Of a DNA stretch of 38,560 nucleotides, positions 27 through 29,940 are shown piece by piece. The stretch is from positions 1-38,560 of the IMG/VR virus record IMGVR_UViG_2529292890_000001, one strand, 5' to 3'. The DNA comes from a virus (lineage: Duplodnaviria; Heunggongvirae; Uroviricota; Caudoviricetes). The position numbers and the translations under genes were made by a program. The notes under the pieces were generated by a model, which saw only the letters and a list, made by a program, of their open reading frames with translations, was not told the DNA's origin and ran no database searches. Position 1 is the stretch's first letter; each line of letters opens with the position of its first letter.

Positions 27-2270
27 TCAGGCACTTTCGCGAATGGGTTCGATTTCATTCAGCGTATCAATTAACGGTTGCGGCTTACCAATAAGATAAC
101 CCTGCATATAATCGATCCCCAAAGAGAGCACCGCCTCGCGGATCTCTTCGTTTTCAACGTACTCTGCCACTACCCGCATTTTCTTCATTCGCGCCAGGTG
201 GCAAATCGACGCCACTATCTGATAATCCAGACTATTTGACACAATATTGCGGATAAAACTGCCGTCAATTTTAAGCAGATCGGCATTCACATTTTTAAGC
301 CGCGCATAGCTGGCGTAGCCGGTGCCGAAATCATCAATCGCAATCTGGCAGCCTAATTCCTGAAGATGCTGCAAGGTGATTTGCGCCTGCTTAACATTGG
401 TCAGAGCATTACTTTCGGTGACTTCAAAAATAAGTTGCCACGCTTCAATCTGATATTTAGCCAGCAGCTGACTGACTTCAACAGGAAAACGAGCCTGACA
501 TACCGAGGTTGGAGACAGATTAATAGCAAAACGGTGAGCGGGCATCTTCGCTCTGTTTTCAGCCATAAATTGCAGCGTATGCTCAATGACCCACATGTCG
601 ATACTCGACGATAAACCAAATTCGTGCGCGACCGGTAAGAAGCTATCGGGGCTGATCAGTTCATCATTCTCACCTTTCATGCGCAGAAGAATTTCATGGT
701 AGACATCACCACGCATACCGGTAATCGGCTGGGCCATCAGGAAAAAATGGTTGTGTTCCAGCGCCCGCTGTAGCCGATTCATCATCGCGACTTTATCTTT
801 CAATTCGCGTTGCAAATACATTGCTCCGCGACGCTGCATATTTTCCGGGGCGTTGGTCACGATAGAAAGTTCGGCCACTGTATTTAGCTCTCCCAGCAGC
901 AGGTAGATATGATTCACTGGCGAGCGCACATAGCAGTAACTGACGCCAATCTGCGGTTGCATCGGCATTCCATCCCAAAAGAAACGAAATTGCTTGAGAT
1001 GGCTATCCAGTGCGGTAATGCGCTCCTGGTGCGATTCTGTATTCAGCCGCAGCGCGAGATCGTTACCCGAAAGCTGATAAACATCTTCACCCGGTTCCAA
1101 CAATGGTGACAGCCAGTGAGAAAGTTTTTGCTTGTATTGAATCCGCAGCATGATGCCATAATTCTTAACCAGCATTTCCATGCCAGGGATGCGTAAATAA
1201 CAAAGCGCAGACCAGGGGGCATCACGTAACGCGCGATTCAGGGCGCGAACATTTGGCAGATGAACCACCGGGTCCACATACGCAAGCCGCTGAATGCGTC
1301 TGACTACCGCTCGCTGACGGGTTGCCAGTACAGCCATATAATTGACAATAAAAGAGAATACCAGATAACTGGAGGAGGTTATGGTGAGCTGCGTGGTATA
1401 GCCAGGATAAATGGGAATGTAATTTTGATAGCTGTGGATGCTGATCATCAACACGACCGCCCAGAGCAATGAAATCAGCTTATAACCATAGCGCATCGCT
1501 CCCCACATCATCAGGGGCAGCAATAATGACAAGGTGTAATTGGTGCTAAAAATCGTGCTTTTTTCATTTAACGGCATGCATAACAGCAATAGTAAAGCAC
1601 CTAATGCCAGTAGCCAGATTGCGAACTCTTTTTTGGTAACTTTGGCATCAACCTGCTGTTTTAATTGCGAATAATAGCTACGTAAATAAAACGGATTTCG
1701 CACCACCCGAATGATGAAGTAGCACAGCGGGACACCAATCAGATTACCCACCAGCAAGGCCTGATAATTGATTAAGGTCCCGAGGTTAAAGGGCATGACG
1801 CCGACCAGATTTTCTCTGCTCGCCAGTAACCCTACAAACGCAGCAAACTGGAAAAGTATCAGAAACAGCGTTGCAGGAAACACAATCTGCCAGAATAGTC
1901 GCTGGGAAATTAAACGGCTATCACCATGTGAAACGTTGTTACGCCGGGGGGTAAAAACCCTGTAACCGCCCCAACAGAGAATGATAATGATAATAAAATT
2001 AGCCGTTAATGAGAGCGTTTCGTAAAAACCCAGCTCTGCATATTTGCGGACAAAAATCCCTAAGGCGATCCCTGGCAATGCCGCCCAGCTGAAAAACATC
2101 ATCATGCTGATCATCAGTGCCAGTGGCAGATAAAAGAGAAAAACTTCACCGGAAGAAATATGCGCGAAAGTATTAATGTGGGCGAAAATGGGCAAGATTA
2201 AAGAAGGCAGGAACAGCGGAAGCCCCCACCATTTATCACGTATTTTTATATAAGTTGCATTCAGTTTCAT
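27..2270 (-). CDS. pdeF: Cyclic di-GMP phosphodiesterase PdeF (YfgF): N-terminal multi-pass membrane (MASE1-like) domain, degenerate GGDEF, C-terminal EAL
   Basis: 747-aa ORF; hydrophobic N-terminal half; C-terminal EAL-type signatures (QPI..., DDFGTGYASYARLK, EYVENEE); length and neighbours match E. coli yfgF-yfgG-yfgH-yfgI. Confidence 0.88.
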   Translation of the reverse strand: MKLNATYIKIRDKWWGLPLFLPSLILPIFAHINTFAHISSGEVFLFYLPLALMISMMMFFSWAALPGIALGIFVRKYAELGFYETLSLTANFIIIIILCWGGYRVFTPRRNNVSHGDSRLISQRLFWQIVFPATLFLILFQFAAFVGLLASRENLVGVMPFNLGTLINYQALLVGNLIGVPLCYFIIRVVRNPFYLRSYYSQLKQQVDAKVTKKEFAIWLLALGALLLLLCMPLNEKSTIFSTNYTLSLLLPLMMWGAMRYGYKLISLLWAVVLMISIHSYQNYIPIYPGYTTQLTITSSSYLVFSFIVNYMAVLATRQRAVVRRIQRLAYVDPVVHLPNVRALNRALRDAPWSALCYLRIPGMEMLVKNYGIMLRIQYKQKLSHWLSPLLEPGEDVYQLSGNDLALRLNTESHQERITALDSHLKQFRFFWDGMPMQPQIGVSYCYVRSPVNHIYLLLGELNTVAELSIVTNAPENMQRRGAMYLQRELKDKVAMMNRLQRALEHNHFFLMAQPITGMRGDVYHEILLRMKGENDELISPDSFLPVAHEFGLSSSIDMWVIEHTLQFMAENRAKMPAHRFAINLSPTSVCQARFPVEVSQLLAKYQIEAWQLIFEVTESNALTNVKQAQITLQHLQELGCQIAIDDFGTGYASYARLKNVNADLLKIDGSFIRNIVSNSLDYQIVASICHLARMKKMRVVAEYVENEEIREAVLSLGIDYMQGYLIGKPQPLIDTLNEIEPIRESA

Positions 2271-2397
2271 AGATGCTCAGCAGAATCCCCCACATCCTGA
2301 AGGAGGTGTATTCAGACAGGCATCCCACCTGACTTCGAATGATGATTATTCATCACTATAGAGAGCAATGATTCTAAGTGTCATATGAAAGTTCCAA

Positions 2398-2411
2398 TTG
2401 ATATATATCAA
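2398..2411. promoter_or_regulatory. FNR/CRP-family box TTGAT-N4-ATCAA in the pdeF upstream region
   Basis: Perfect inverted repeat ttgatatatatcaa about 130 bp upstream of the pdeF start; pdeF is recalled to be anaerobically (FNR) controlled. Confidence 0.5.
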
Positions 2412-2621
2412 ACAAAATAACCCTGATTAATGAATTATTACGTTTATCATGTTAACTCATCATTATTACATCATCATTGTAAATAATTAAATTAACTTTC
2501 ATAACATTAAAATATGTATCAACTGACGCTTTTTTACATAACGAAGAATTGACCATTTTGTCCTGTTGTGCCTTAATGTAAGTACCGTCCACGGCGTGGG
2601 ACATACTTCAAGGAACCTTTT

Positions 2622-2813
2622 GTGAGTCAGGCAACCAGTATGCGAAAACGACACCGATTTAACAGTCGCATGACCCGTATCGTACTGCTCATCAGCTTTA
2701 TCTTCTTCTTTGGCCGTTTTATCTACTCGTCCGTCGGTGCCTGGCAGCACCATCAGAGCAAAAAAGAAGCTCAGCAATCCACACTCTCCGTCGAATCACC
2801 GGTACAACGTTAG
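2622..2813 (+). CDS. yfgG: Small protein YfgG (63 aa)
   Basis: 63-aa ORF in the conserved position between yfgF and yfgH; hydrophobic central segment. Confidence 0.75.
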   Translation: MSQATSMRKRHRFNSRMTRIVLLISFIFFFGRFIYSSVGAWQHHQSKKEAQQSTLSVESPVQR

Positions 2814-3123
2814 CGGTTACCTTCTCCACTCTCACAGAACATAACGGCACCTCGCTGTCGGATGCTTTTGCTCTTTGAGATTATCAAAGCGGCAGATATT
2901 CTTTCATCTTAAATTTTACGTCTTTGTTCTGACTGAAGTTCATCCTGTTCGGCTGCGAAATAAATACATCATTAATACATATGTTGTGATGATGTATTTT
3001 TATAAATTATTTCCCGCATGAATTTTAATAAATTTAATCTATTCCTTTATACGCAATACATTTACTTTCCTCTTTTGATGATCTTAAATGTCTCATTTTT
3101 CGTAATGTGTATAACAAGGAATA

Positions 3124-3642
3124 GTGATGAAATTTAAAAAATGTCTTCTGCCTGTGGCAATGTTAGCGTCATTCACTCTGGCAGGATGCCAGTCAAATGC
3201 TGATGATCATGCCGCCGATGTTTATCAAACCGATCAACTGAATACCAAACAAGAAACTAAAACCGTTAATATTATTTCCATTCTTCCCGCAAAAGTTGCC
3301 GTAGACAACGCCCAAAATAAACGGAACGCACAAGCCTTCGGCGCGCTTATTGGCGCTGTCGCTGGCGGTGTTATCGGCCACAACGTCGGGTCTGGCAGCA
3401 ATTCCGGAACGACGGCAGGTGCAGTTGGCGGCGGAGCTGTAGGCGCGGCAGCGGGTTCGATGGTGAATGATAAAACCTTAGTGGAAGGTGTTTCTTTAAC
3501 ATATAAGGAAGGCACCAAAGTGTATACCTCCACCCAGGTGGGTAAAGAGTGCCAGTTTACGACAGGTTTAGCCGTTGTTATTACCACGACGTATAACGAA
3601 ACGCGTATTCAGCCAAATACCAAATGTCCTGAAAAGAGCTAA
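3124..3642 (+). CDS. yfgH: Outer-membrane lipoprotein YfgH (glycine-zipper)
   Basis: 172-aa ORF; signal peptide with lipobox LAGC; Gly/Ala-rich glycine-zipper segment. Confidence 0.8.
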   Translation: MMKFKKCLLPVAMLASFTLAGCQSNADDHAADVYQTDQLNTKQETKTVNIISILPAKVAVDNAQNKRNAQAFGALIGAVAGGVIGHNVGSGSNSGTTAGAVGGGAVGAAAGSMVNDKTLVEGVSLTYKEGTKVYTSTQVGKECQFTTGLAVVITTTYNETRIQPNTKCPEKS

Positions 3643-3657
3643 TAATCAGGAGGAGTC

Positions 3658-4197
3658 ATGAAGAAAGTTTTTCTTTGCGCCATCTTAGCCTCCTTAAGCT
3701 ATCCGGCTATCGCCTCATCATTGCAGGATCAACTCTCGGCTGTCGCAGAAGCGGAACAGCAAGGTAAAAATGAAGAGCAAAGGCAGCATGACGAATGGGT
3801 CGCGGAGCGCAACAGGGAAATCCAGCAAGAGAAGCAACGTCGCGCAAACGCCCAGGCCGCGGCTAATAAAAGAGCGGCAACGGCAGCAGCGAATAAGAAA
3901 GCTCGTCAGGATAAACTGGACGCCGAAGCCACTGCGGACAAAAAACGCGATCAAAGTTATGAAGATGAGCTACGTAGCTTAGAGATTCAGAAACAAAAAC
4001 TGGCGCTGGCGAAAGAAGAAGCCCGCGTCAAGCGCGAAAACGAATTTATCGATCAGGAACTGAAGCACAAAGCTGCGCAAACCGATGTGGTGCAATCTGA
4101 AGCTGACGCAAACAGAAATATGACTGAAGGCGGTCGCGATCTGATGAAAAGCGTGGGCAAAGCAGAAGAGAACAAATCGGACAGCTGGTTTAATTAA
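3658..4197 (+). CDS. yfgI: Uncharacterised secreted coiled-coil protein YfgI
   Basis: 179-aa ORF with signal peptide and charged K/E/R/A/Q-rich low-complexity body; RBS AGGAGG upstream; conserved position. Confidence 0.8.
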   Translation: MKKVFLCAILASLSYPAIASSLQDQLSAVAEAEQQGKNEEQRQHDEWVAERNREIQQEKQRRANAQAAANKRAATAAANKKARQDKLDAEATADKKRDQSYEDELRSLEIQKQKLALAKEEARVKRENEFIDQELKHKAAQTDVVQSEADANRNMTEGGRDLMKSVGKAEENKSDSWFN

Positions 4198-6214: not shown

Positions 6215-6485
6215 ACTTTCTCCTGTTTACTATCTATAAGCCAGTCAATTATTGATGACTAAACCCGCATAGTAAACCATATATGAATCATTATTGTTCC
6301 ATATCATATATCTCAATAAAAGTACTAATTATTTTACAGAACGAGCCAGCAGAGTGGGGGCAGTTGTACAGGAACCATAGACTTAATTTTGTATTTAATA
6401 ATGCTATGGTGTAATAAACCTGAACATGTATTTAAAATACGTACTGATTCATGATAGAATTCAAAGATAACTTTTCACCAACTCC

Positions 6486-6513
6486 GTTTTTGATACCCGC
6501 AAAATATTGCGGG
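6486..6513 (+). terminator. Hairpin plus T8 (plus-strand intrinsic terminator) between tailspike and lysis cassette
   Basis: cccgcaaaatattgcggg followed by cttttttttaa; on the minus strand the same hairpin is preceded, not followed, by the homopolymer. Confidence 0.45.
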
Positions 6514-6520
6514 CTTTTTT

Positions 6521-9500
6521 TTAACGTTCTTCCAGAGACTGAATCCGCTCTTTTATCTTATCCATTTCTCTGCGCTGCCATGCTGCCTCGATATAGAATA
6601 AGAGATCAGGTCTGACCCCCCATCTAGATCCTGCTGGCGTTATTTCAACGCGCTCAATGATGTCTTCCATTACCATCACTGGATTATCATCCTCATCAAC
6701 AATGATGCTCCCGTCATTATCAGTCAGCTGTATTTCCCTTTGGCCAGTAATGACGTCATCATATACTGCGGGATAATCGTCATAGCAAAGAAAGGCATAG
6801 CGGCATGTTGTGCTTTCTTCTTCCATGAGTCCGTGAGAAATAAGAACATCACGAAGTTGCTGCGCGATTACACCATGATGTATCCTCGCCCCTTCTTCTC
6901 CCTTTATAGCGACAGCGTTCAGCCATTTATAAGCGATATACCTGACGTCACCCCAGGCATCCAGCAATGCTTCGTCAGGAGAGACCGGCTCTGTCTTTAA
7001 TGTTCCGTCACTGGTAACCACAGGATTGGAGCCAAGATAAACTGTCGAGAACCTGTTTCCCGGACCACCAAGAGCATTTACATTATCAAGATAAGGTTTA
7101 ACATCTCCGTTCTCAAAAAGATGTTCGAGTGCGTTATATACCGCGCGACGTGGAGTACTGCTTCCGGAACCATGCAACGTTATCATTGCACCATCTGCTG
7201 AAGACGTTGTTTCACCGCCGCTAACGATTAATCTCTGAGCGGTAACATCATCAGACGGTACTTTCTTCGCAATAATGGCGTAATTGCCCTCCAGTTTGAC
7301 TTCCGCGCGAACTTGTCCTGATGTACCTGCATGGACAGTCAGTGACTGGACGGCAACATCATCTGTGAAATCAACGGGTACAGGAACCGTCCTCACGCCG
7401 GACGTCGACATAAAAGTAGGAAGCGTTCTGTTAGGAGTGGCTCCGTAGACAAAATCCCTTGAAACAAATTCTTCCTGTTTAATTTTCACCCTGAAACAAT
7501 ACAAATCAGCCGGGTGACCATCGTGAACATAAGGATATTTTCTGTTGTTATCCCCTATGCTCCATGGGTTTAGAAAGTCTTCCCCACCGAAAATGTAGTA
7601 CAGCCAGTTGTCTTTGATACAAACTGAACCAACACCAACCGCAGAGTTAACTATTCCGCCCTGATAAATCTGATCAGTAACATTAACCCACTCTACATTA
7701 TCCAGACTCCACTCATTGACGTTAACTCTGGTCATAAATGTTCTTGGATAATTTCCTGCATAACGGTTATCAGGTTCTCCTCCTTCCCACTCACCAAATG
7801 CGCGCTCACTGCCAAAAATAATCAGCTCATCGCCAACTTTGGCAAAAGGAAGGTTTGAGTGATGAACATTATTTGGGAAGCGAAGAGAATTCCATGATGC
7901 ACCTAAATCAGAGCTTCTGTGCAATGAACTACCGGGTTGAGTACTTAATGTCCCCCTGGTCGTCAGATACAGAATGCCATCATAATATTTTACACATGGC
8001 TCAGATGCATTCGCCTCATATTCTGCAGGTATGCGTCTGCGAACAAAGCTACCAGGAGAACCGAAAGCATCAGAGAAATAGAGTATCCCAAGCTCGCGTG
8101 GACCAATATCACCATTATGGTAGCCAACAGCAAAACTGTTATCGCTAATCGTCGCAAAACTGTGAATCTCAGTAACAGGAGTGCTTCCGTCAACAAAAGA
8201 AGAAATAGTTCCAAGACTGGTTTTTCTCCATGGTGACGAGTGAAATGATGTACCAAAACTCCAGTATCTACCCTCGTTATTCTGATCCACATCCTGAGTA
8301 TTTTGCGTCGTAACTGTAAAAGTATTTTTATCAATAACAGTAGTCACCGTCATATTCCCGGTAACACCTGTAACACCAGAGTTTGAGAAGTTGACAAAAT
8401 CACCAGCAAATAATCCGTGATCAGTAATGCGAATATAAGCGACTTGCTGATTTGCTGCTTTCGTTATACCACCATAAACGCGAAGGCTGCGACTCATTGG
8501 ACGATCCCACAACTCTGCAACCTGCAGTTTATTTCCGCGCACGGTCCGCGTCTCAATTACAGCAAAAAGGCGATTTCTGACAACCCCCATACTCATGCAG
8601 TGATAGTTAACTGTGGGATAGTTTTCATGTAAATCTGTAAGCCATTCCGGCGTTGTCCAGGTCTTCCCGTCATCTCCTGAGCGAACCCATGCAACATGGA
8701 GGTTATTTACACCATGGCGGTCTCCAGCCATAAAAGGCGCATAGATGACATTGTCATATACAAACGTTTTATCCTGCGTCCAGGCGTTGTACCACGGTGT
8801 ATCTGTAATTTTAAATAACTCTCCCTGGATAAAATCTTCAGAAGCATAAAAAAGAGGCTGACCCGGTATTCTCTCAAATAAAAAACGAGCATTTTTAAAT
8901 CGGCTGACATCCGGAAGAGTTGATACTTTAAAAGTAAGCCCTAATCCGTCAATTTTATAACCTGGAGATGAGGCTTCAAGGCACGCGCTTATTGCAGTGG
9001 AATCGTCATTTATACCATCACCAACAGCTCCAAAATCTTTGGGGCTAATAGCATCACGCATTTTATCCTGGAACGTTCGGTATACTGCCCCAGAACCATA
9101 CTGAATAAACCAACCAAAACCACCAACAACCCCGGCGATTGCAGCATCGACATAATTACGCATTGAGCGATTATTTACAGCGTCCTGTTCAAGTGATGGA
9201 TCTGCAAGGTTAGAAATTCTGTTTTGCTTTGCATCGTAATATTTTGCAAGCAAAGATGGTTTCATCAATGCACGTCTGAACCATCCAAAACATTGCTGGA
9301 TCAGCATCGTCAGGTAGTCAAAGGCATCTTCATGCACTTCGGGGAAAAACTTTCCCTGATTGCGAAGGTCTGTCTCCTGCACTACATCAAGCACACGATC
9401 TATCGTAATTCTCCATCCAGTAGCAAGCGGCGACGGAAGAACCACAGAACCGCCACTATAAGTGCCCGCCCCAGTTACCGTATAACCGGTATCCAGAACC

Positions 9501-9640
9501 AATTCTGTTACGTTCCCGTTCAGGTCAGACACCTGAACAACCAGGTCGGATTTTCTGAAAATTCGAAAAGTATACGGAAACGATGTCGTAACGCCGTTAC
9601 CGGTGTATTCGTTGTGGTCAACTTCGGTTGAGACCGTCAT
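6521..9640 (-). CDS. Tailspike / receptor-binding depolymerase: N-terminal particle-binding domain, central beta-helix and BNR (Asp-box) region, C-terminal self-cleaving chaperone (peptidase S74-like)
   Basis: 1039 aa; DFGAVGDGINDDSTAI (pectate-lyase-like beta-helix start); Asp boxes SGDDGKTWT and SSDLGASW; C-terminal ...VVTS-DGTLK... followed by a helical LE-rich tail. Confidence 0.8.
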   Translation of the reverse strand: MTVSTEVDHNEYTGNGVTTSFPYTFRIFRKSDLVVQVSDLNGNVTELVLDTGYTVTGAGTYSGGSVVLPSPLATGWRITIDRVLDVVQETDLRNQGKFFPEVHEDAFDYLTMLIQQCFGWFRRALMKPSLLAKYYDAKQNRISNLADPSLEQDAVNNRSMRNYVDAAIAGVVGGFGWFIQYGSGAVYRTFQDKMRDAISPKDFGAVGDGINDDSTAISACLEASSPGYKIDGLGLTFKVSTLPDVSRFKNARFLFERIPGQPLFYASEDFIQGELFKITDTPWYNAWTQDKTFVYDNVIYAPFMAGDRHGVNNLHVAWVRSGDDGKTWTTPEWLTDLHENYPTVNYHCMSMGVVRNRLFAVIETRTVRGNKLQVAELWDRPMSRSLRVYGGITKAANQQVAYIRITDHGLFAGDFVNFSNSGVTGVTGNMTVTTVIDKNTFTVTTQNTQDVDQNNEGRYWSFGTSFHSSPWRKTSLGTISSFVDGSTPVTEIHSFATISDNSFAVGYHNGDIGPRELGILYFSDAFGSPGSFVRRRIPAEYEANASEPCVKYYDGILYLTTRGTLSTQPGSSLHRSSDLGASWNSLRFPNNVHHSNLPFAKVGDELIIFGSERAFGEWEGGEPDNRYAGNYPRTFMTRVNVNEWSLDNVEWVNVTDQIYQGGIVNSAVGVGSVCIKDNWLYYIFGGEDFLNPWSIGDNNRKYPYVHDGHPADLYCFRVKIKQEEFVSRDFVYGATPNRTLPTFMSTSGVRTVPVPVDFTDDVAVQSLTVHAGTSGQVRAEVKLEGNYAIIAKKVPSDDVTAQRLIVSGGETTSSADGAMITLHGSGSSTPRRAVYNALEHLFENGDVKPYLDNVNALGGPGNRFSTVYLGSNPVVTSDGTLKTEPVSPDEALLDAWGDVRYIAYKWLNAVAIKGEEGARIHHGVIAQQLRDVLISHGLMEEESTTCRYAFLCYDDYPAVYDDVITGQREIQLTDNDGSIIVDEDDNPVMVMEDIIERVEITPAGSRWGVRPDLLFYIEAAWQRREMDKIKERIQSLEER

Positions 9641-10116: not shown

Positions 10117-10845
10117 CTATCGTTTCGCTTTGTGCTCATCCCAGCACGTTTTGCACCATGCCATTAAGCCGTCCGCATTTTGATTATTAGGGTAAAAGCT
10201 GGTTCGTTTTCTGCGGACATTACAAATTGGGCACCACTTCATATGGCGTGTATTCTTTGGGCCATCGAGACACCTTGCACACCACTTAGTCAATCCATCT
10301 GGATTTTTTGACGATTTCCTGAATTTTTCATATGGAAGGTTTATTCTGCATCGCAAGCACTGCTTGCTACCACTTGAAACTCTGTTAGCTGATTCTTCTT
10401 TTGGCGGCGATACAGAAGGTATTCTTGCTGGCTCTGATACTGCCTGAGGTGCTTTTTTAGATGACTGAGACGATATGTCATCACCAGGGAATCTTCCATG
10501 ATATGCCGGACGCGTTGACACTCCAGGTGGAAGCTCAGCTGTAAACGGCTTTGGCTGAATCAGTTGCCTCTCTTTTGCTAACTCCTGCTGTTTATAATAT
10601 GTCTGGATTACCGCACTATCATAAGCAGGAGGTGCGGAAATATTAGGCGCATTACCTCCAGTTTTTTGAAACTGAGTAGAGGTGTGTTCTATCACCTGTG
10701 TACGATTAATCGTTATCTCCCCATCTTCGGTCTTTATCGTTTTGTTATGATTAACGACCGTACGATCAGAGATCTTAGTCTTGTTCTGGTTGATAACGTA
10801 AATAATCACCGCAACCACACCAACAACTATCCAGAAAACTTCCAT
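10117..10845 (-). CDS. Membrane-anchored protein with C-terminal tandem CxxC zinc-ribbon repeats; function unknown
   Basis: 242 aa; N-terminal TM helix, S/T/P/Q-rich linker, C terminus with CLRC...WCARC...WCPIC...WCKTC; RBS GAGG; two palindromic motif copies upstream. Confidence 0.6.
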   Translation of the reverse strand: MEVFWIVVGVVAVIIYVINQNKTKISDRTVVNHNKTIKTEDGEITINRTQVIEHTSTQFQKTGGNAPNISAPPAYDSAVIQTYYKQQELAKERQLIQPKPFTAELPPGVSTRPAYHGRFPGDDISSQSSKKAPQAVSEPARIPSVSPPKEESANRVSSGSKQCLRCRINLPYEKFRKSSKNPDGLTKWCARCLDGPKNTRHMKWCPICNVRRKRTSFYPNNQNADGLMAWCKTCWDEHKAKR

Positions 10846-10974: not shown

Positions 10975-11063
10975 TTTACATCGCACTCCTCTTGTGCCAT
11001 AGTAATCGAGCACTGGCAAAATCCAGTGCCGGGATTTGCACCCCGGATTACTAAAAGGCGCAT

Positions 11064-11086
11064 ACCACGCCAGACGTGGTTTTTTT
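11064..11086 (+). terminator. Candidate intrinsic terminator in the leader upstream of the BRO-N gene
   Basis: accacg-ccaga-cgtggt followed by T7. Confidence 0.4.
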
Positions 11087-11244
11087 ATGCGTATAGCACA
11101 GTCATGCCAGAATTATGGTGGGACGTGCAGGGGCACCGAAAGGTGCGCCGGGTCCTTTTAGCCGGTAGTGCAAACCCTGTACGTCTCACCACCAACGAGA
11201 TTTGCACCTCAGGTGGTGATTAACCATACTAAAAGGTGATTGCC

Positions 11245-11931
11245 ATGACTGCTAACGTAACCCCATCTGTTTTTCATTTTGAATCAGAAGCAACCATTCG
11301 AGCCATTGTTATTGATGGAAATCCTTGGTTTGTTGCCAAAGACGTTATTAAAGCTCTTCAACTGACAAACCCCACCATGTCAATCAAATCTCTTGATGAT
11401 GATGAAAGGGCTAAATTTAACTTAGGTCGTCAAGGCGAAACCAATATTATCAGCGAGTCAGGCCTCTACACACTGATCCTCCGCTGCCGCGATGCGGTGA
11501 CACCAGGCACTATCCCCTACCGCTTTCGTAAATGGGTTACAGGTGAGGTTCTTCCTCAGATCCGCCGCACCGGAAGTTACATTAAAAACTCGCTCCCGCA
11601 GGAAGAACGCATAAAGATGGTTGCCGACCAGGTAGCCAACGCCACAGCATCAGCAGTGATGCAGGCGATGAAGATAGAGAACAAAACCTACAGTGCCCCA
11701 CTGAAGCCCGGCTACCGCAGCCTGATTCACTCGCCGTCTGGTGTTCTCGGCCTGACGGAGAACTCACTGCTGATGAATCTGTTGAACCAGTTACAGGAAG
11801 ACGGGCACGACGTATCGGGCGCGGCGGCGGAGCTGACCACCATGTTCTGCTACATCGTCGGTGTGAGCAAATGCCTGCGTGATATCCAGACTCACGCGGA
11901 GTACATCAACGACAAAGCAGGATTCTTCTGA
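11245..11931 (+). CDS. BRO-N domain protein (antirepressor-like, two-domain)
   Basis: N-terminal FHFESEATIRAIVIDGNPWFVAKDVIKAL is a BRO-N signature; C-terminal domain paralogous to ORF 9837-10094; ATG at 11245 with RBS AAAGGTGA (track ORF uses GTG at 11236). Confidence 0.65.
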   Translation: MTANVTPSVFHFESEATIRAIVIDGNPWFVAKDVIKALQLTNPTMSIKSLDDDERAKFNLGRQGETNIISESGLYTLILRCRDAVTPGTIPYRFRKWVTGEVLPQIRRTGSYIKNSLPQEERIKMVADQVANATASAVMQAMKIENKTYSAPLKPGYRSLIHSPSGVLGLTENSLLMNLLNQLQEDGHDVSGAAAELTTMFCYIVGVSKCLRDIQTHAEYINDKAGFF

Positions 11932-29863: not shown

Positions 29864-29940
29864 GTGGCATTAGCTCAGTTGGACAGAGCAACCGCCTTCT
29901 AAGCGGTTGGTCGCAGGTTCGAATCCTGCATGCCACGCCA
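29864..29940 (+). tRNA. tRNA-Arg (anticodon UCU), phage-borne
   Basis: 77 nt; acceptor GTGGCAT/ATGCCAC; D arm GCTC/GAGC; anticodon stem accgc/gcggt with loop CTTCTAA; T arm gcagg-TTCGAAT-cctgc; discriminator G plus CCA. Confidence 0.85.

Follow-up and report, generated by a model that had tools for sequence, protein, structure and literature searches.

A probable self-cleaving K1 endosialidase tailspike on a swapped attachment module in a Uetakevirus prophage

The gene at positions 6521..9640 on the minus strand of the window (the whole 38,560-nucleotide stretch analysed here) very probably encodes the tailspike of a Uetakevirus prophage near yfgI in a K1-type E. coli, namely a self-cleaving endosialidase of family GH58 mounted on a swapped attachment module. 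By their sequences, the parts of the gene form a mosaic, in which DFGAxGDG is the joint between a Uetakevirus attachment module and an endosialidase body like that of the prophage CUS-3.

Gene and prophage setting

The 1039-aa open reading frame reported in a first-pass annotation is present and intact, and every motif listed there was found where it had been placed. A PHROG profile search matched the protein over its full length to phrog_1171, 'tail spike protein', and the earlier reading of it as a receptor-binding tailspike holds. The gene and a nearby element are:

6521..9640, minus strand: complete tailspike gene from the open reading frame list, 1039 aa plus stop codon, predicted K1-specific endosialidase pre-protein
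6496..6513, no strand assigned: GC-rich hairpin from a pattern scan, 8 nt 3' of the stop codon

The carrier of the spike is a temperate epsilon15/phiV10-like (Uetakevirus) prophage that adjoins yfgI in the chromosome of a K1-type E. coli. Its lysis cassette, tailspike, antirepressor and structural genes make up a setting that is 95-97% identical to phiV10, phiv142-3 and HEMP4, and the synteny around the spike, which lies between the lysis cassette and the antirepressor region, is kept with phages ZX5 and phiv142-3. The hairpin is a possible transcript end or stabiliser, but its role as a terminator for the tailspike gene is uncertain because the T-run is on the plus strand side, with an A-run before the stem on the strand of the gene. 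An NCBIfam search of the tailspike gave a sub-threshold TolR match and nothing meaningful, and a PADLOC search of the small neighbouring open reading frames gave no match.

The catalytic body

Four endosialidase domains were identified between aa 205 and 876, together with two Asp boxes:

8828..9028, minus strand: endosialidase N-terminal extension, PF12218, aa 205-271 (Pfam E 5.9e-32, full-length model)
7478..8827, minus strand: catalytic six-bladed beta-propeller, PF12217, aa 272-721 (Pfam E 3.6e-232, model positions 1-367 of 367)
8246..8494, minus strand: beta-barrel nested in the propeller, PF12195, aa 383-465 (Pfam E 3.2e-46, model positions 1-83 of 83)
7013..7477, minus strand: stalk, triple beta-helix or prism, PF12219, aa 722-876 (Pfam E 8.5e-78, full-length model), containing R863
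8657-8680, minus strand: Asp box 1, SGDDGKTW, aa 321-328, aligned with SGDDGQTW of the K1F endosialidase
7892-7915, minus strand: Asp box 2, SSDLGASW, aa 576-583, aligned with SRDIGQTW of the K1F endosialidase

All four domains, as well as the C-terminal Peptidase_S74 domain, score above their curated Pfam cut-offs, and with E-values reaching 3.6e-232 these matches do not arise by chance. In a PDB sequence search, aa 205-876 matched the endosialidase NF (endoNF) structures 1v0e and 3gvl with E=0, and the phi92 endosialidase 4hiz was matched with E 3e-271. The catalytic fragment is 66% identical to endoNF over 665 aligned residues, and the region of PF12218 aligns to the first residues of the 1v0e chain. 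The residues H309, R515, E547, R562 and R613 are conserved and correspond to H350, R549, E581, R596 and R647 of endoNF, whose importance for catalysis and substrate binding has been described (PMC12632334). A regular expression (S.D.G..[WF]) found exactly two Asp boxes in the protein, and their alignment with the K1F boxes bears out the earlier suggestion of a sialidase-type glycosidase.

The architecture is that of one canonical endosialidase (GH58, endo-N-acetylneuraminidase), with the extension, the propeller and its nested barrel, the stalk and Peptidase_S74. By homology, the product of the window allele would cleave the alpha-2,8-polysialic acid of the E. coli capsule and would be specific for K1.

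The DFGAVGDG junction and the attachment module

Directly upstream of the first endosialidase domain, and overlapping its start, is a short motif that marks a module boundary, preceded by the N-terminal module itself:

9014..9037, minus strand: DFGAVGDG junction motif, aa 202-209, module boundary
9044..9640, minus strand: N-terminal virion-attachment module of the Uetakevirus (epsilon15-phiV10) type, aa 1-199, recognised by nucleotide and amino acid identity, PHROG and PDB matches

The first-pass annotation had seen in this motif the entry to a beta-helix and had described the spike as carrying mixed depolymerase signatures. Such a hybrid, with a pectate-lyase-like beta-helix domain entered at DFGAVGDG next to a sialidase-like domain and possibly two activities, is extremely improbable. 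The DFGAVGDGINDD motif does give short matches to beta-helix enzymes, with PF12708 aligned to aa 201-221 (E 0.024), and the PDB sequence search extended these to 5m5z, mannuronan epimerases and the Sf6 and CBA120 spikes; however, such matches span only about 20-40 residues, the PF12708 score is 14.9 bits against a cut-off of 27, and the endosialidases 1v0e and 4hiz carry a motif of the DFGAVGDG type themselves. A beta-helix repeat domain beyond the N-cap motif was not found, the PDB matches being confined to aa ~183-231 with E 1e-4 or weaker. Moreover, the four endosialidase domains cover aa 205-876 fully, and this segment can be aligned over its whole length with the endoNF crystal structure, so that no space remains for a beta-helix domain. 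A right-handed beta-helix (pectate-lyase-like) depolymerase was rejected on the same grounds, the Pfam scores and the contiguous coverage by endosialidase domains. The motif, which is also present in beta-helix spikes, begins the endosialidase N-terminal extension and is a site of module swapping.

The N-terminal module is 96.6% identical in nucleotide sequence to the tail fibre gene of phiv142-3 across gene positions 1-596. This near-identity stops at aa 199, directly ahead of DFGAVGDG, and phiv142-3 has RDFGAKGDGITDD at the position of the motif, before an unrelated C-terminal part. Amino acid identity over aa 1-166 is 64-72% to the epsilon15-like Salmonella phages E15, SPN1S and SPC32N, and the module is 68% identical to that of an O157 typing phage. 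About 15 PHROG tail families match aa 1-~166 alone, and the N-terminus of the tailspike 8ck1/28lx in the PDB matches aa 1-210 (E 1.9e-34). The conserved attachment module that had been proposed is therefore real, but it is longer than the suggested 150 aa or so, extending to about aa 166 across the tail families and to aa 199 in the comparison with phiv142-3. From its position and conservation, the module of aa 1-~199 would attach the mature trimer to the virion. The ~100-nt piece at the junction (window 8900-9100) was searched for a possible donor and matched ZX5-type records only.

The authors of the ZX5 study describe the N-terminus of their spike as T7-like (PMC9782041). The T7 tail fibre N-terminal domain PF03906 matched aa 135-161 of the window protein only and with 10.1 bits against a cut-off of 25.2, and membership in this family was rejected; any kinship with the T7 tail fibre appears too remote for a Pfam sequence test.

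The C-terminal chaperone

The stalk is followed by a domain that was assigned as an intramolecular chaperone:

6524..7012, minus strand: intramolecular chaperone and putative autoprotease (Peptidase_S74), aa 877-1039 (S877-R1039, 163 aa), with the S877-K882 dyad and a C-terminal helix

The idea that the last ~160 residues form an S74 chaperone held up well: PF13884 matched aa 877-937 (E 1.7e-10, 41.4 bits against a cut-off of 22 bits), and 3gw6, the pre-cleavage chaperone of endoNF, was matched with E 1.8e-95 and aligned to the last residues. Identity to the endoNF chaperone is 54% across the released part. The sequence VVTSDGTLK is located at aa 874-882, with the S877 codon at positions 7010-7012. 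S877, K882 and R863 align with S911, K916 and R897 of endoNF and have the S-x4-K spacing of the dyad, whereas D878 corresponds to N912. The roles of the S74 dyad and arginine in autocleavage have been described (PMC3742443, PMC8326128), including that of R897 in endoNF (PMC8326128).

Autocleavage of the product of the window allele is expected by homology. The cut had previously been drawn between S877 and D878; S877 is indeed the residue to mutate, but the bond is most likely one residue earlier, T876|S877 rather than S877|D878, as 1v0e and 3gvl, which are mature endoNF chains, stop at the position that corresponds to T876. Which side of S877 is cut was deduced from these chain ends and from the MyRF papers, and the mature spike is accordingly predicted to end with T876.

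Relatives of the spike

The tailspike is already known, with near-identical copies published (ORF7 of ZX5) and annotated at NCBI as endosialidase. The first-pass annotation had not identified it as the classic K1 endosialidase known from earlier characterisation. Identity is 100% to the gene of WP_000218910.1 (RefSeq, E. coli K1 genomes), and identical copies occur in APEC O2:K1:H5 and other genomes, where the PGAP name is endosialidase. The ORF7 tail protein gene of vB_EcoP_ZX5 (MW722083, QTH80017.1; PMC9782041) is 99.2% identical in nucleotide sequence over all 3120 nt, with six amino acid substitutions (R141K, L150F, S480P, A581T, I970M and Q971P, window residue first). ZX5 has a Uetakevirus setting like that of the window, except that the window prophage contains an extra 242-aa open reading frame near the spike that ZX5 is without. 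ZX5 is viable and has been propagated on a host of serotype O87:H52:K1; the study that describes it reports the same three-part architecture (PMC9782041).

The endosialidase gene siaK1 of CUS-3 (ABQ88383.1), a P22-like Lederbergvirus prophage of E. coli K1 RS218, shares the catalytic body, stalk and chaperone, with 99.1% DNA identity across aa 233-1030 (22 mismatches, no gaps). Within this segment the window allele differs from CUS-3 at 13 amino acids, including A581 for T in the second Asp box. Towards both ends (aa 200-240 and the final ~14 aa), DNA identity to CUS-3 is only about 62-68%, and the N-terminal adaptors are wholly different, being of the P22 gp9 head-binding type in CUS-3 and of the epsilon15/phiV10 type in the window spike. 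The siaK1 record, 'endosialidase tailspike protein', carries the GO term for endo-alpha-sialidase activity with evidence code IDA (PMID 16689790). Endosialidase NF of K1F (1v0e, 3gvl, 3ju4; 3gw6) has the same order of folds, two Asp boxes and the Ser-Lys dyad with its arginine, but K1F is a lytic T7-like phage with an N-terminus of the T7 gp17 type, unlike the window spike. The window protein also has a 7-aa insertion relative to endoNF, FVDGSTP, at about aa 481-487.

This insertion, along with differences from endoNF at 34% of positions, could be taken to indicate a substrate other than plain K1, such as O-acetylated K1 or K92 (alternating alpha-2,8/2,9) polysialic acid, and K1 lysogens of CUS-3 O-acetylate their capsule via neuO (PMC8653822). 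We consider a different substrate improbable: the CUS-3 enzyme, annotated with endo-alpha-sialidase activity, has a body 99% identical to that of the window spike, the insertion is common to CUS-3, and the host of ZX5 is K1.

Even less probable is that the gene belongs to a decaying prophage, whether because the protein is catalytically dead or binds polysialic acid only, or because the prophage is defective. Endosialidase genes of the CUS-3 type are pseudogenes in FDAARGOS_1303 and CE10, so that decay of such prophage genes does occur, and among the copies compared the window allele has the most differences from the other ten. However, its frame is intact, none of the five catalytic residues or of the two dyad residues for autocleavage is altered, the spike of ZX5, a viable phage, differs at only 6 amino acids, and the allele is intact in several independent genomes.

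The spikes of phiV10, phiv142-3 and epsilon15 have the N-terminal ~166-199 aa and the genome position in common with the window spike, the first ~166 aa being shared by the spikes of the genus as a Uetakevirus adaptor, but their receptor-binding parts are unrelated. The spike of the epsilon15-like VB_ST_E15, for example, is annotated as a right-handed beta-helix repeat protein. The difference in the catalytic part that had been suggested for phiV10 and epsilon15 goes as far as unrelatedness, with an endosialidase in its place, so the host receptor would also differ and would be the K1 capsule; phages of the phiV10, phiv142-3 and epsilon15 type infect O157 E. coli or Salmonella, whereas the window spike is a K1 endosialidase by homology.

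The Uetakevirus-type prophage is located at the yfgI/guaA site and CUS-3 is a P22-like prophage of an unrelated type. In the O7:K1 strain CE10, which has a copy of the endosialidase body that is 99.3% identical to that of the window, the two endosialidase copies have three variants in common that are absent from the other copies compared. About 69 complete genomes contain at least two endosialidase copies. Tentatively, and with rather limited confidence, we suggest that repeated gene conversion in K1 strains with both prophages may keep the two bodies about 99% identical. Gene conversion would explain the near-identical core with homologous but diverged edges, the three variants common to the copies in CE10, and the occasional pairing of a pseudogene with an intact copy.

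Discussion

K1 endosialidases and their self-cleaving chaperone are a textbook example of modular tailspike evolution. Going by homology, the C-terminal chaperone domain of the window spike would help three pre-protein chains to fold and trimerise. When the triple beta-helix stalk has formed properly, the dyad of S877 and K882, with help from R863, would cut between T876 and S877 and release the last 163 residues, and the N-terminal module of ~199 aa would hold the mature trimer on the virion.

The spike gene is of modest practical use as a sign that the host is probably a K1 strain and that the prophage would be specific for K1. In addition, it provides a clean case of one catalytic body carried by yet another kind of virion adaptor, the third or fourth, with the swap at DFGAxGDG.

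A canonical endosialidase pre-protein

The tailspike gene was found where the first-pass annotation had placed it, and each of the motifs named there was present at its coordinates.

Tailspike ORF (from the ORF list) and motifs (by position check)
6521..9640, minus strand: tailspike ORF, 1039 aa
nt 9014-9037, minus strand: DFGAVGDG, aa 202-209
nt 8657-8680, minus strand: SGDDGKTW (first Asp box), aa 321-328
nt 7892-7915, minus strand: SSDLGASW (second Asp box), aa 576-583
nt 7010-7012, minus strand: S877 of VVTSDGTLK, aa 874-882

The two Asp boxes were the sole matches in a scan of the protein for S.D.G..[WF]. The second box differs at codon 581 (nt 7898-7900), being SSDLGASW in the window allele and SSDLGTSW in both prophage CUS-3 and Escherichia phage vB_EcoP_ZX5 (ZX5). 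Pfam domains extend throughout aa 205-937 without any unexplained stretch, and all five score above their curated cut-offs.

Pfam domains of the tailspike
aa 205-271: End_N_terminal, E 5.9e-32
aa 272-721: End_beta_propel, E 3.6e-232
aa 383-465: End_beta_barrel, nested, E 3.2e-46
aa 722-876: End_tail_spike, E 8.5e-78
aa 877-937: Peptidase_S74, E 1.7e-10

In a search of PDB sequences, structures 1v0e and 3gvl of endoNF, the endosialidase of coliphage K1F, matched aa 205-876 (E=0), the phi92 endosialidase 4hiz matched at 3e-271, and 3gw6, the pre-cleavage endoNF chaperone, matched aa 757-1038 at 1.8e-95. Of 665 residues aligned with endoNF, 66% were identical; across the released chaperone part, identity was 54%. 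A deep mutational scan and earlier work identified H350, R549, E581, R596 and R647 as critical in endoNF (PMC12632334), and all five are conserved in the alignment, as are the autocleavage residues.

Conserved residues (endoNF to tailspike, from the alignment)
H350 to H309
R549 to R515
E581 to E547
R596 to R562
R647 to R613
S911, K916 and R897 (autocleavage) to S877, K882 and R863
G956 (also autocleavage) to G923

Judged by its sequence, the tailspike is a canonical endosialidase pre-protein and not a mixture of depolymerase types, since the Pfam coverage, the structure matches and the conserved catalytic and autocleavage residues all describe one architecture. The proposed sialidase signature is borne out, as the Asp boxes sit in an endosialidase with conserved catalytic residues, while the "mixed signatures" are not.

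DFGAVGDG had been taken as a beta-helix entry motif, and we rejected it as a sign of a second catalytic domain. The only Pfam match of beta-helix type was PF12708 at aa 201-221 (14.9 bits; cut-off 27), and PDB beta-helix matches were weak, limited to about aa 183-231 and to a stretch that the endosialidases 1v0e and 4hiz match as well. The tail fibre of the Uetakevirus (epsilon15/phiV10-like) phage phiv142-3 has the N-terminal module in common with the tailspike and carries RDFGAKGDGITDD at the same position, followed by an unrelated C-terminal part. Because endosialidases and this fibre also carry it, we read DFGAVGDG as a short element common to the starts of many receptor-binding bodies, which in the tailspike coincides with a module boundary.

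Mosaic origin and distribution

Counted from the start codon, the first 596 nt of the gene (aa 1-199) match phiv142-3 at 96.6% identity. Gene nt 699-3091 (aa 233-1030) match siaK1, the endosialidase tailspike of the P22-like E. coli K1 prophage CUS-3, at 99.1% identity in a gap-free alignment with 22 mismatches. At either edge, in aa 200-240 and the final ~14 aa, CUS-3 is homologous, but DNA identity is only about 62-68%; the junction piece was found in ZX5-type records only. Epsilon15-like Salmonella phages have the N-terminal ~166 aa too (64-72% aa identity); more distant relatives of this segment occur in podophages of Pseudomonas, Xanthomonas, Pelagibacter, Bordetella and others, and it also recurs in many PHROG tail families. 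The conserved attachment module of the first-pass annotation holds, and a putative role in virion attachment would fit the presence of this segment in so many phage tail proteins. The suggested change in host specificity likewise stands. Modular exchange of endosialidases among K1F, CUS-3 and other phages has been reviewed (PMC5380687).

ORF7 of ZX5 is 99.2% identical to the whole gene, with 6 aa differences, and its published description comprises a tail-fibre domain at the N-terminus followed by an endosialidase with its intramolecular chaperone; the ZX5 host is O87:H52:K1 and integration is at the guaA 3' end (PMC9782041). Copies with 100% identity are present in APEC O2:K1:H5 E19035, FDAARGOS_1303 and other genomes, under the PGAP name 'endosialidase catalytic beta-propeller domain-containing protein'. 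The gene is already published and annotated, and therefore of low interest.

Among 5426 complete E. coli genomes, 71 contained the full-length gene and 193 the endosialidase body, the latter at 262 places, and many K1 genomes had Uetakevirus-type and CUS-3-type genes together. We took both copies from four of these genomes and set them against those of the window, ZX5 and CUS-3, a small sample (n=11). The common core (gene nt 720-3070) differed by only 0-23 nt, the window allele having more differences than any other copy, and three variants (gene nt 1320, 1389 and 1819) occurred in both CE10 copies and in no other. The CUS-3-type copy is an annotated pseudogene in FDAARGOS_1303 (internal stop; 768-3713 of extracted locus L005) and CE10 (frameshift; 445-3391 of L007), with the Uetakevirus-type copy intact. 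The sequences suggest gene conversion between co-resident prophages, an idea not established in so small a sample.

Prophage context

Window positions 1 to about 4290 are E. coli chromosome, with pdeF (27-2270) followed by yfgG, yfgH and yfgI up to 4197. The first phage homology is at about 4290, which puts the prophage end somewhere from 4198 to about 4416; the Uetakevirus-type prophage continues to the window end, which falls inside it. Outside the spike body, phiV10, phiv142-3 and HEMP4 share 95-97% identity with it. The gene order is a spanin-like DUF2514 gene, a GH19 endolysin, two holins, the tailspike, a BRO-N antirepressor region and structural genes.

Other features of the prophage
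6215-6520: AT-rich gap of 306 nt between the tailspike stop and a holin-like gene
6496-6513: GC-rich hairpin directly after the tailspike stop codon, T-run on the opposite strand (pattern scan)
10117-10845, minus strand: 242-aa ORF
11010-11086, plus strand: isrK (Rfam, 67.4 bits)
11111-11196, plus strand: C4 antisense RNA (Rfam, 77.8 bits)
11236-11931: BRO-N antirepressor ORF, directly downstream of both RNAs
29864-29940, plus strand: tRNA-Arg (anticodon TCT), between the portal/terminase region and early genes

The ORF list had no ORF of at least 60 aa in the gap; phiv142-3 contains an additional ORF of 99 aa at this place. The 242-aa product begins with a hydrophobic segment and carries a pair of CxxC...WCxxC repeats towards its C-terminus; it gave no match beyond a weak, sub-threshold one to Stc1, and none in PADLOC. 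ZX5 lacks this ORF, whereas the E19035 prophage has it as hypothetical protein WP_000451759.1; this could be an accessory gene ('moron') adjoining the tailspike. The RNA pair before the antirepressor looks like P1/P7-style control of that gene by antisense RNA. The tRNA-Arg (TCT) is also annotated in the E19035 prophage.

Cleavage site and proposed mechanism

The S74 chaperone proposed in the first-pass annotation was recovered as both the Peptidase_S74 and the 3gw6 matches. In PDB, the last residue of the mature endoNF chains aligns with T876. In MyRF, the counterparts of endoNF S911 and K916 are S587 and K592, and the cut was located at P586/S587 by mass spectrometry (PMC8326128; also PMC3742443). 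By homology, the scissile bond would be T876-S877, one residue ahead of the cut first proposed; S877A is still the right mutant.

A four-step mechanism, modelled on these homologs, very probably applies as a whole. Three chains would fold and trimerise with the aid of the chaperone domain, and a correctly formed triple beta-helix stalk would position R863, S877 and K882. The T876-S877 bond would then be cut and the last 163 residues released. The mature spike, held by its N-terminal module, would bind and cleave the alpha-2,8-polysialic-acid K1 capsule.
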